DNA of 64,000 nucleotides from an uncultured delta proteobacterium (GCA_963782535.1 CAWAKE010000011.1:5520-69519); one strand, 5' to 3'; shown: positions 46,835 through 52,105, counted from the first letter of the stretch. Notes: a model not told the origin generated them from the sequence alone. Program-made: numbers and translations.

Positions 46835-46874
46835 TTAAGTATCAGTTTTTTTGGGTGGGGGAGGAGGAAGGAAC

Positions 46875-47543
46875 ATGAGGAAAGCAAACGCAACGATGAT
46901 CGCGACAGCGATCGCCCTGGCACTCGCGCTGCCCGCGGGTGCGCTGGCTCAGAACACTCCGAACAATGGCAGCGGCCCGGCGGTAGTTTCGCCGCTGCAG
47001 TTGCCCGGCACGGCCGCTGCGCCGCAGGCACAGGTGCCGCAGCCCCAGGATCAGCCCGGGGTTAACTGGAAGGGCGTCGGGGTCGGCGCCGGCACGGTGG
47101 TCGGTAATGTCCTGTACATCCCGGCGAAGCTGGTTTACGGGATTCTCGGCGGAGTGGCCGGCGGCGCCGGATGGGCGCTGACGGGCGGCAACACGCAGGT
47201 CGCCAATACTATCTGGCGCAGCTCGCTCGGCGGCGATTATGTGCTGACGCCGAGCATGGTGGCAGGACAGGACCCCGTCCATTTCAGCGGACCGACCACG
47301 ACCGCTACGCAACCGCTGCCGGCGGCGCCGCAGGTATCGTCGGCCTACAGCAACACCCCGACCGGCATGAGCAGTGCGCCCATGAGCAGTGCGCCCATGA
47401 GCAGTGCACCGATGAGCGCCGCACCCGCGGCGGGCGGCGCGATCGCCAGCGGGACCCATCCGATGGACAGCGGCGCGGGGCCGGTGAATCGAGGCGGATC
47501 GTCGCGGCTTTCGGGCCCGCTGCCGAGCACCAGTATCGAGTAG
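46875..47543 (+). CDS. secreted hypothetical protein with Gly-rich hydrophobic core and C-terminal MSSAP tandem repeat
   Basis: GGAGGAGGAAGG lies before ATG 46875. Has the signal peptide MRKANATMIATAIALALALPAGALA and 4 x 15-bp repeats at 47367-47426. Confidence 0.6.
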   Translation: MRKANATMIATAIALALALPAGALAQNTPNNGSGPAVVSPLQLPGTAAAPQAQVPQPQDQPGVNWKGVGVGAGTVVGNVLYIPAKLVYGILGGVAGGAGWALTGGNTQVANTIWRSSLGGDYVLTPSMVAGQDPVHFSGPTTTATQPLPAAPQVSSAYSNTPTGMSSAPMSSAPMSSAPMSAAPAAGGAIASGTHPMDSGAGPVNRGGSSRLSGPLPSTSIE

Positions 47544-47752
47544 GGCGCGAGGCGGCTGAATCGGGGCCGACGAACCGGCTGAGAAGCGGCCGAGAACCTT
47601 TCGGGAACTGGCCTGGCTCGGCGAGAGCCAGGCCGGGACGGCGAAGAAAATGACCGCCCCGGCGCGGGCGGTCATAGAAGGTCGTCGTCGGTCATTCGGT
47701 CGACGGTAGCGAGAACGTCGGCGGCAAGGATCGAAGAGGAGCGCAACAGCGC

Positions 47753-48103
47753 ATGAAGCGGGCGCGTTTTATCTGGAAATCGAGTTGAAGCACCTGTCGC
47801 AGCGCCAGGAGTTTCCTGCGTGACGAACTTGGGGTGGAACTTGACGAGCGCGACTATGCCAGGCAACGGCTGACGCTTGACGAATTGCGCGAGCTGTTCG
47901 CCGGCGCCGACCCGCGCGCCTATATGAACCCGAAGAGCCCGGCATTCAAGGCGATGGGGCTGCGCGGGAAAACGTTGACGGCCGAGGAGGCGCTAAGGCT
48001 GATGGCCGAGGAGCCGAATCTGCTCAAGCGGCCGCTGGTGATAGCGGGGCGCGTGTTAGTGGCGGGTTTCGACCGCGATCGGCTGCACGAAGTCCTGAAA
48101 TAG
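47753..48103 (+). CDS. ArsC/Spx/YffB-family thiol oxidoreductase with in-frame TGA (47786-47788) at the first Cys position of CxxC; candidate selenoprotein (or nonsense allele)
   Basis: The same frame as ORF 47834..48103 reads MKRARFIWKSS-TGA-STCRSARSFLRDELGVELDERDY..KSPAFKAMGL..NLLKRPLVI... Total length is 116 codons, as in the family. GAGGAG lies upstream of ATG 47753. A stem-loop at 47802-47821 starts about 14 nt after the TGA. Confidence 0.6.
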
Positions 48104-50961: not shown

Positions 50962-52102
50962 GTGTTGTGTCCCATAAATAACCTATTTAATTTATTACTC
51001 TAAAGCGGTATGATGCTGCCCGATGGGCAGACCTAACACGGTAGTGGAGGTGAGTGCGTCGGAGAGTGAGCAGTTGGGTTCGATTGCTCGCTCGCGGAGT
51101 TTGCCGCATTCGTTGGTACGGCGCGCGCGAATCGTTTTGATGTCAGCTGAAGGTGTACCCAATCAGGCGATTGCGGCGCGCTGCGAGGTCAGCGTTCCGA
51201 CCATCAGCCACTGGCGGCGCTGTTGGCGCGAACGCGGGGTGGCTGGGCTGCACGGCGAACTGCGTCCCGGACGGCCGCGCAGCTATGGCGATGAGCAGGT
51301 GGCGACGCTGATGCGCAAGGTGCTCCGCAGCCGACCGCCCAACGCCACCCATTGGAGCGTGCGCACCGTCGCGGCGGACACCGGCATTTCCAAGAGCACG
51401 GTGGCGCGCTACTTCGCGCTGTTCGGGCTCCAGCCGCACCGCAGCAAGAGCTTCAAGCTTTCCACCGACCCTTTCTTCGTCGAGAAGGTGCGCGACGTGG
51501 TGGGGCTCTATCTCAACCCACCGGACAAGGCCCTGGTGCTGTGCGTGGATGAAAAGTCGCAGATCCAGGCGCTGGAGCGCACCCAACCGGTGCTGCCGCT
51601 GGGTCTCGGCTACCTTGAAGGGGTAACTCATGACTATTTTCGGCATGGGACCACGACCTTATTCGCGGCGCTCAACGTGCTCGACGGGGCGGTCATCACT
51701 CAGTGCAAACCGCGCCATCGGCACCAGGAGTTTCTGGCCTTTCTCAACCACCTCGATCACCATGTTCCGGCCGCGCTTGAGGCGCACCTGATCGCCGACA
51801 ACTACGCCACTCACAAACATCCGCGGGTCAAGGCCTGGCTCGCGCGCCATCCGCGCTTCCACCTCCATTACACCCCCACCTACGCGAGTTGGCTCAATCA
51901 GGTGGAGCGCTGGTTCGCGCTTATCACGCACCGCGCGATCCGCCGCGGCTCGTTCCGTTCGGTGCGTGACCTGGTCCAAACAATCGATCGCTTTGTGACT
52001 CACTACAATACTCACAAGCGACCCTTTGCCTGGACCGCTACCGCCGACTCAATCTTCGCCAAGCTCCAACGCCTTTGTAAAGTTATTTCTGGGACACAAC
52101 AC
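50962..52102 (+). mobile_element. complete IS630-family insertion sequence (1141 bp) in a CTAG target with TA duplication
   Basis: The terminal inverted repeats are GTGTTGTGTCCCATAAATAAC (50962-) and the reverse complement of ..52102, GTGTTGTGTCCCAGAAATAAC (20/21). Flanks are C-TA on the left (50959-50961) and TA-G on the right (52103-52105). Confidence 0.85.
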
Positions 52103-52105
52103 TAG
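51023..52105 (+). CDS. IS630-family DDE transposase
   Basis: 360 aa with N-terminal HTH regions (VPNQAIAARCEVSVPTISHWRR), DEKSQIQALERT and DNYATHKHPRVKAWL..YTPTYASWLNQVERWF (DDE region). The stop TAG uses the flanking TA. Confidence 0.9.
   Translation: MGRPNTVVEVSASESEQLGSIARSRSLPHSLVRRARIVLMSAEGVPNQAIAARCEVSVPTISHWRRCWRERGVAGLHGELRPGRPRSYGDEQVATLMRKVLRSRPPNATHWSVRTVAADTGISKSTVARYFALFGLQPHRSKSFKLSTDPFFVEKVRDVVGLYLNPPDKALVLCVDEKSQIQALERTQPVLPLGLGYLEGVTHDYFRHGTTTLFAALNVLDGAVITQCKPRHRHQEFLAFLNHLDHHVPAALEAHLIADNYATHKHPRVKAWLARHPRFHLHYTPTYASWLNQVERWFALITHRAIRRGSFRSVRDLVQTIDRFVTHYNTHKRPFAWTATADSIFAKLQRLCKVISGTQH

Follow-up and report, generated by a model that had tools for sequence, protein, structure and literature searches.

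The window analysed in this work is a stretch of 64,000 nucleotides (nt) from an uncultured delta proteobacterium (GCA_963782535.1 CAWAKE010000011.1:5520-69519), and it contains, at 47753..48103, a small gene of the ArsC/Spx family whose reading frame is crossed by a TGA codon exactly at the first cysteine position of a CxxC motif. Comparison with its orthologues makes it highly probable that the UGA at 47786 encodes selenocysteine (Sec) in a 116-residue protein of the ArsC/Spx/YffB superfamily, which would carry the motif U12-S-T-C15. A UxxC selenoprotein had already been proposed in a preliminary description of this DNA, and the proposal is now supported, short of proof, by the existence of Cys orthologues, by conservation on both sides of the UGA and by a constraint on a 3' stem-loop that is specific to the Sec forms. 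The features of the locus are as follows:

47736..47741, plus strand: Shine-Dalgarno-like GAGGAG, read directly in the sequence, 11 nt upstream of the ATG at 47753.
47753..48103, plus strand: predicted full coding sequence (CDS) for a (seleno)protein of the ArsC/Spx family, running over 116 codons from M1 to K116, with Sec at position 12 and a TAG stop at 48101-48103.
47786..47788, plus strand: in-frame TGA, putative selenocysteine codon U12 and first residue of U-S-T-C, as deduced from the TGA/Cys alternation among orthologues.
47795..47797, plus strand: TGT encoding Cys15, the second (resolving) residue of UxxC, invariant in the orthologues and aligned with Cys13 of Spx.
47797..47826, plus strand: stem-loop resembling a selenocysteine insertion sequence (SECIS), with a lower 3-bp stem (47797-47799/47824-47826), a core helix (47802-47821) and a GUU loop (47811-47813).
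47834..48103, plus strand: GTG-started open reading frame (ORF) of 89 aa produced by the ORF finder, which is not a separate gene but an artefact of the stop at the TGA.

Translation of 47753-48103 yields MKRARFIWKSS*STCRSARSFLRDELGVELDERDY..., that is, 116 sense positions followed by TAG, with the TGA at 47786-47788. The direct read and this translation agree with the preliminary description as to the ATG at 47753, the GAGGAG about 11 nt ahead of it, the TGA and the 116 codons, and the ORF list likewise contains only the GTG-started ORF of 89 aa, as it had been stated. The spacing of 11 nt between GAGGAG and ATG is rather long; the sequence listing shows a purine-rich GGAG-type motif ahead of the start codon in many orthologues.

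The orthologues were collected by scanning one genome per GTDB species, which yielded 80 loci, all of them from Binataceae or Binatus metagenome-assembled genomes (MAGs). One of them (L076) was overlooked by the first regular expression and recovered with BLAST, and together with the window they make up a set of 81 orthologues. About 20 kb around the gene were taken from each genome, i.e., ~1.38 Mb in total from a single syntenic region. The locus is conserved, with a CinA-like gene upstream in 77/80 loci, a LysR regulator downstream in 58/80 and an acyl-CoA dehydrogenase in 55/80, and these conserved neighbours indicate that the sequences compared are true orthologues. The codon aligned with the TGA of the window is TGA in 61 of the 80 loci, TGC in 16 and TGT in 3, so that, counting the window, 62 Sec-type and 19 Cys-type genes are found in the 81 orthologues and no other residue occupies the position. 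The cysteine located three codons after the TGA (Cys15) is present in 81/81. When the 11,671 in-frame TGAs of the Binataceae DNA were scanned blind, the present gene (61 TGA, 19 Cys) emerged as the sole credible site where TGA alternates with Cys codons only; the other hits of this all-against-all scan were rejected, since they result from translating conserved genes out of frame or in antisense. An independent Logan assembly (run ERR11571143, L083), which represents a near-identical strain, contains the identical TGA, with 1 synonymous difference over 201 aligned bases, and the samples from which the TGA-carrying species-representative genomes derive belong to many different studies. Thus, the alignment with Cys homologues and with orthologues of related genomes, which had been recommended beforehand as a check, gave TGA in 62/81 and Cys in 19/81 sequences, the hairpin being present in the Sec forms.

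We have constructed a neighbour-joining tree with the part of the protein that lies beyond the hairpin, a rough tree since only ~90 residues could be used and it is not robust, and in this tree the Sec and Cys forms are interleaved. Parsimony on the same rough tree requires ~12 switches between Sec and Cys and places Sec at the root, suggesting that the contrast between both forms is not the product of a single split.

The RNA located just 3' of the TGA can fold into a stem-loop (positions are counted here with the U of UGA as 0). This hairpin is found at a fixed place in 62/62 Sec forms, with a 7-bp stem formed by +17..+23 and +28..+34, and most of them read CGCAAGA, loop [A/G]GUU and UCUUGCG, often extended by a closing A-U pair and by a lower stem of 2 bp. 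A subgroup of seven sequences (the window and L001-L006) differs by three base changes, having GCC/AGG/CUG in place of GCA/AGA/UUG, and its fold, displaced by one base in register, contains a bulged C and ends in a GUU triloop, 7-8 bp being retained. For the window itself, RNAfold predicts a helix from G47802 to U47821 in which GCGC pairs with GCGU and AGGA with UCCU; a single C is bulged, and the loop is GUU. The standard pairing holds in every distinct sequence at 5/7 core pairs, and the remaining 2/7 are broken in six or seven sequences only, chiefly those of the window subgroup. The stem-loop drawn in the preliminary description (bulged C47805, CAGG/CCUG, loop AGUUU) turned out to be an equivalent alternative register of the RNAfold structure. 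The other pairing mentioned there, CGCAG/CUGCG, can also form, but its loop would span 13 nt and another fold has the minimum energy. The origin of this second option is a direct repeat of the CGCAA/CGCAG type in the 5' arm, at window positions 47798-47807, which reads CGCAACGCAA in the majority of the orthologues and CGCAGCGCCA in the window and offers two possible 5' partners to the 3' arm; the longer helix corresponds to the minimum-energy fold.

The Sec and Cys forms encode a nearly identical peptide, A-R-S-F-L-R, and the contrast between them was used in place of covariation to look at the RNA. In the Sec forms, third-position entropy is 0.34 bits over codons +5..+11 vs 1.24 over the remaining codons, whereas in the Cys forms the two values are 1.13 and 1.17 bits; moreover, the gene-wide minimum of third-position entropy in the Sec forms corresponds to the six-codon window starting at +5. 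The arginine at +7 is encoded by AGA or AGG in 62/62 Sec forms vs 5/19 Cys forms (Fisher 6e-12, uncorrected for phylogeny), and AGR codons represent just 5-8% of the other arginine codons of the gene. Local folding energies average -10.8 kcal/mol for the Sec forms and -7.7 kcal/mol for the Cys forms (Mann-Whitney 4e-7, likewise uncorrected), and the hairpin is mostly lost in the latter. This contrast shows that the constraint acts on the RNA, not on the protein, and only in the UGA forms.

Sec and Cys forms at this locus amount to a natural experiment, with 62 Sec and 19 Cys orthologues, ~12 switches and a visible decay of the hairpin after the change from Sec to Cys, and such a series can be useful to study why and how often Sec gets lost. 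The ~12 switches are many for one bacterial family; a survey of 2006 counted 15 Sec-to-Cys events in total over all bacteria (PMC1794560). One Cys form (L018:10028-10075, MAG MFD05377.bin.1.214) has TGC together with a full SECIS-like hairpin, and its local folding energy, -14.6 kcal/mol, indicates the highest stability among the 81. This orthologue appears to have changed from Sec to Cys recently and to retain a remnant SECIS, a situation known for other recent conversions of this kind (PMC1794560). Two MAGs contain near-identical copies of the Sec form on two contigs each, namely L005 and L006 in MFD05513.bin.2.80, and L026 and L041 in MFD06092.bin.1.266; these pairs could reflect strain redundancy in the bin or a true duplication.

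Several results weigh against the insertion of Sec. Genes for SelA, SelB and SelD were not found by tblastn with the E. coli proteins or by motif regular expressions in the window and the 80 loci (~1.38 Mb). In the same DNA, ARAGORN detected 8 tRNA genes in total and no tRNA-Sec, the sole tRNA of the window being a tRNA-Ala, and the TGA scans did not reveal a second selenoprotein gene. The TGA-joined ORFs of the window were rejected, as they are adjacent genes in the same frame (4326, minus strand), off-frame ORFs or non-coding upstream sequence (before a CysS-like gene, 13142). The negative result concerning the machinery says little, because the DNA searched is ~20 kb around one locus per genome. 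A literature search, incomplete in coverage, found no report of Sec use in Binatota. The folding check suggested in the preliminary description had a mixed outcome: RNAfold does find the hairpin, but its energy in the window is unremarkable, no better than that of shuffled sequence (z = -0.88; 35/200 shuffles fold as well). In addition, the number of compensatory double changes in the hairpin is 0 and the shuffle control was not exceeded; such changes are not visible because the helix is too conserved. No Rfam match for the hairpin was obtained with gathering thresholds over the whole window or with E <= 10 over 47740-47880, and the only match of the region, to a microRNA, was discarded as due to chance. 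Finally, the statistics that compare Sec and Cys forms ignore the kinship between sequences.

These same negative results are what would favour a readthrough of the UGA without Sec, in which a near-cognate or suppressor tRNA inserts Cys, Trp, Gly or Arg and the hairpin acts as a generic stimulator, since neither the Sec machinery nor another selenoprotein gene was found in the window and the 80 loci, and covariation does not support the hairpin. We give this explanation a small chance only, as the UGA sits exactly at the redox Cys of the CxxC motif and is exchanged with Cys codons only, in ~12 switches, and an alternation restricted to Cys codons is the signature of Sec/Cys pairs. The fdhF-like geometry of the hairpin, whose tetraloop places the G-U at a codon-phased distance, also speaks against it. 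Furthermore, TGA is the ordinary stop of 20/46 coding-like ORFs of the window, which rules out a genome-wide reassignment of TGA and makes an efficient general suppression unlikely. Protein-level conservation on both sides of the UGA, Cys homologues and a 3' stem-loop with an apical G-U, the three marks of a bacterial selenoprotein gene that can be computed, are all found here, and on these standard comparative grounds we infer that the residue inserted is Sec and not some other amino acid.

The next possibility, that TGA is a true stop, is still less probable. It would imply an upstream ORF of 11 codons and a re-initiation at GTG, ATG or TTG that generates a product of 89-95 aa without the redox motif. 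Such are exactly the products that gene callers give, and a short leader peptide followed by a hairpin could in principle be regulatory. However, the restart codons are not conserved, the gene callers using V28 or M28 in some genomes and L22 or M22 in others, while an ATG or GTG start codon is located at -11 codons from the TGA in 60/62 Sec forms. The segment that separates the TGA from the restart (x-T-C-R-x-A-R-x-F-L-R...) is kept as protein, with Cys15 and Arg16 invariant, and the Cys-form orthologues run uninterrupted as one protein of 116 aa. Moreover, judging from a structural model, the truncated product would lack the core strand 1 and helix 1 of the thioredoxin fold. Codon variability in the 62 Sec forms points in the same direction: the entropies at codon positions 1/2/3 are 0.42/0.31/1.04 bits in the 10 codons ahead of the TGA and 0.57/0.42/1.20 bits in the 100 codons past it. 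A variability dominated by the third position on both flanks is indicative of purifying selection on the protein sequence, and it shows, on comparative grounds, that the UGA is conserved and lies inside a translated sequence.

The products of the gene callers can be recognised in the databases. A search in a collection of 5.8 billion proteins delivered a tight family whose full-length members have 115-118 aa and all carry W-K-S-T-C-[ST]-T-C-R, the full-length homologues reading C-[ST]-T-C throughout among the matches listed. Stumps of 89 or 95 aa that start just past the motif account for 57 of the best 120 matches, and no U or X is written in any stump among these 120 listed. The sequences identify these stumps as the footprint of gene callers that halt at the internal TGA in many independent assemblies, and in the collection searched the Binataceae group appears solely as truncated ORFs. 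In other words, the gene is mis-called throughout a clade of bacteria from soil and peat, and the protein databases lack its active site.

The weakest explanation, that the TGA is a nonsense mutation of a pseudogene or a sequencing or assembly error of the contig, as the preliminary description had contemplated, can be dismissed: although TGA is one base away from TGC or TGT and other lesions had been claimed for the window (unconfirmed), the TGA is shared with 61 other species-representative genomes (62/81 orthologues) and with the independent Logan assembly, which excludes a base-call error or a private nonsense allele, and the third-position-dominated variability of both flanks is not that of a pseudogene.

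When C was substituted for the TGA, the protein matched the Pfam family ArsC (PF03960) with 56.7 bits vs a cutoff of 24 (E = 3e-15, residues 9-112), in agreement with the family assigned in the preliminary description. The best curated NCBI model was that of Spx/MgsR (TIGR01617), with 65.1 bits, under its cutoff of 75.05. The scores were also below the cutoffs for NF002459 (Spx/MgsR regulators; 43.3 vs 123), TIGR00014 (glutaredoxin-dependent ArsC; 38.6 vs 106.05) and NF041106 ('ArsC family (seleno)protein'; 22.6 bits vs 85). By its sequence, the protein is therefore a member of the ArsC/Spx/YffB superfamily that falls outside all the curated subfamilies. The nearest solved structures by sequence are those of Spx (E = 1e-10), where the TGA aligns with Cys10 and Cys15 with Cys13. 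The AlphaFold model of a Cys homologue (P0001) that is 79% identical to the window protein has a pLDDT of 94, with strand 1 at residues 4-8 and helix 1 at 13-25, and it presents a thioredoxin-like fold in which the redox residue is found at the N-terminal end of helix 1. Foldseek aligned this model with Spx (TM 0.80), YffB (0.81-0.83) and ArsC (0.70-0.76). The Arg of the LL[KR]RP motif is kept (R93, equivalent to R94 of ArsC). The Arg triad of ArsC was considered as a pointer to an oxyanion reductase and discarded, as R60 corresponds to the invariant Asn59 and R107 has no clear Arg counterpart in a pairwise alignment that, with 23% identity, is indicative only. No ars genes (arsR, arsB/acr3 context) were found nearby at the window or at the related loci.

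By analogy with E. coli fdhF, the UGA at 47786 would be read during translation by Sec-tRNA(Sec), which SelB, bound to the mRNA hairpin located 14-35 nt past the UGA, would deliver. The selenolate, which would lie where helix 1 begins, like Cys10 in Spx, would then be the nucleophile and could form a reversible selenenylsulfide with Cys15, and such a U12-C15 couple might endow the protein with the properties of a fast redox-active reductase or of a redox sensor. A U12-C15 selenenylsulfide redox couple is the most likely chemistry of this protein. A more ambitious reading, which we consider unlikely, is that of a Sec-based Spx-like redox sensor that would have RNA polymerase or another partner as its target and be switched by a U12-C15 selenenylsulfide; the gene may also be the first sign of Sec decoding in Binatota. 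Such a sensor would be, to our knowledge, the first selenoprotein that acts as a transcriptional regulator. A gene of this type implies that most Binataceae would decode Sec.

Concerning the surroundings of the gene in the window, an ORF of 277 aa on the minus strand (46842-47675) is flanked by the CinA-like gene and the selenoprotein gene. Pfam gives no match for it, but tblastn finds a counterpart at the same relative position in 44/80 loci with ~44% identity. An opposite-strand ORF of 230 aa overlaps it, making it uncertain which of them is the true gene. On the minus strand at 47650-47675, ~80 nt upstream of the selenoprotein start, there is a GC-rich inverted repeat of 10 bp (ATGACCGCCCGCGCCGGGGCGGTCAT) followed by a T-rich tail, which resembles a terminator of the minus strand. 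Some 3 kb downstream of the selenoprotein locus, the region 51023-52105 (plus strand) encodes an IS630-type transposase with a DDE_3 and several HTH domains.

The putative SECIS can be compared with that of E. coli fdhF, the reference element in bacteria and one defined by experiment, whose segment was folded from the UGA (codon 140) by the same method used for the Binataceae hairpins. The fold obtained has a 6-bp upper stem, a bulged U and a GGUC loop, with the G-U at +22/+23. Both systems have a hairpin just 3' of the UGA within the CDS, an upper stem of 6-7 bp and a tetraloop with G-U at loop positions 2-3, and in the variant of the window a pyrimidine of the 5' arm is bulged as well. In contrast, the Binataceae loop is NGUN and its G-U occupies +25/+26, farther from the UGA by exactly one codon, the primary sequences are unrelated, and most orthologues lack the bulge.

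Among the proteins of the same fold, ArsC (E. coli/R773, PDB 1I9D) has its catalytic Cys12 at the position of U12 and its R94 at that of R93, and differs in having R60 where the Binataceae proteins have the invariant Asn59, in R107, which has no aligned Arg, and in the ars neighbours that are missing here. YffB (E. coli b2471; Pseudomonas PA3664, PDB 1RW1) has the same fold and a similar length; unlike the UxxC motif of the window protein, it contains a single Cys.

The Spx protein of Bacillus subtilis is a regulator with a CxxC redox switch that binds the C-terminal domain of the alpha subunit of RNA polymerase. Its C10-x-x-C13 (PDB 1Z3E, 3GFK, 7F75) corresponds to U12-x-x-C15 and both proteins have the LL[KR]RP motif. 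Nevertheless, their identity is ~25-30%, the window protein scores below the cutoffs of all the Spx models, and it stops at residue 116, without the C-terminal tail of ~15 residues that Spx has. Use of Sec is not known for any Spx homologue. In the CDD, cd03032 is presumably the Spx-type subfamily of ArsC.

The closest precedents are the ArsC-like selenoproteins. Members from Desulfotalea and Desulfuromonas were already on a list of 2006 (PMC1794560), the GOS survey described an 'Arsenate reductase 2' (cd03032) with a UxxC motif (PMC2398784), and an arsenate reductase-like UxxC family, NF041106, is included in recent reviews (PMC9312934, PMC13188914). The assertion of the preliminary description that ArsC-like Sec/Cys pairs had already been reported is thus borne out (PMC1794560, PMC2398784, PMC13188914). 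The window protein resembles them in the ArsC-family thioredoxin fold, in the N-terminal UxxC with Sec in first place and in the existence of Cys homologues, and it is predicted by the same computational criteria. It is different from NF041106, as it scores far under the cutoff and belongs to a different subfamily in spite of the same type of UxxC motif, and it differs from the known ArsC-like selenoproteins in its origin, the Binataceae (phylum Binatota). UxxC ArsC-like selenoproteins have been known since 2006-2008, and the Binataceae group is an addition to that kind that does not bring a new mechanism.

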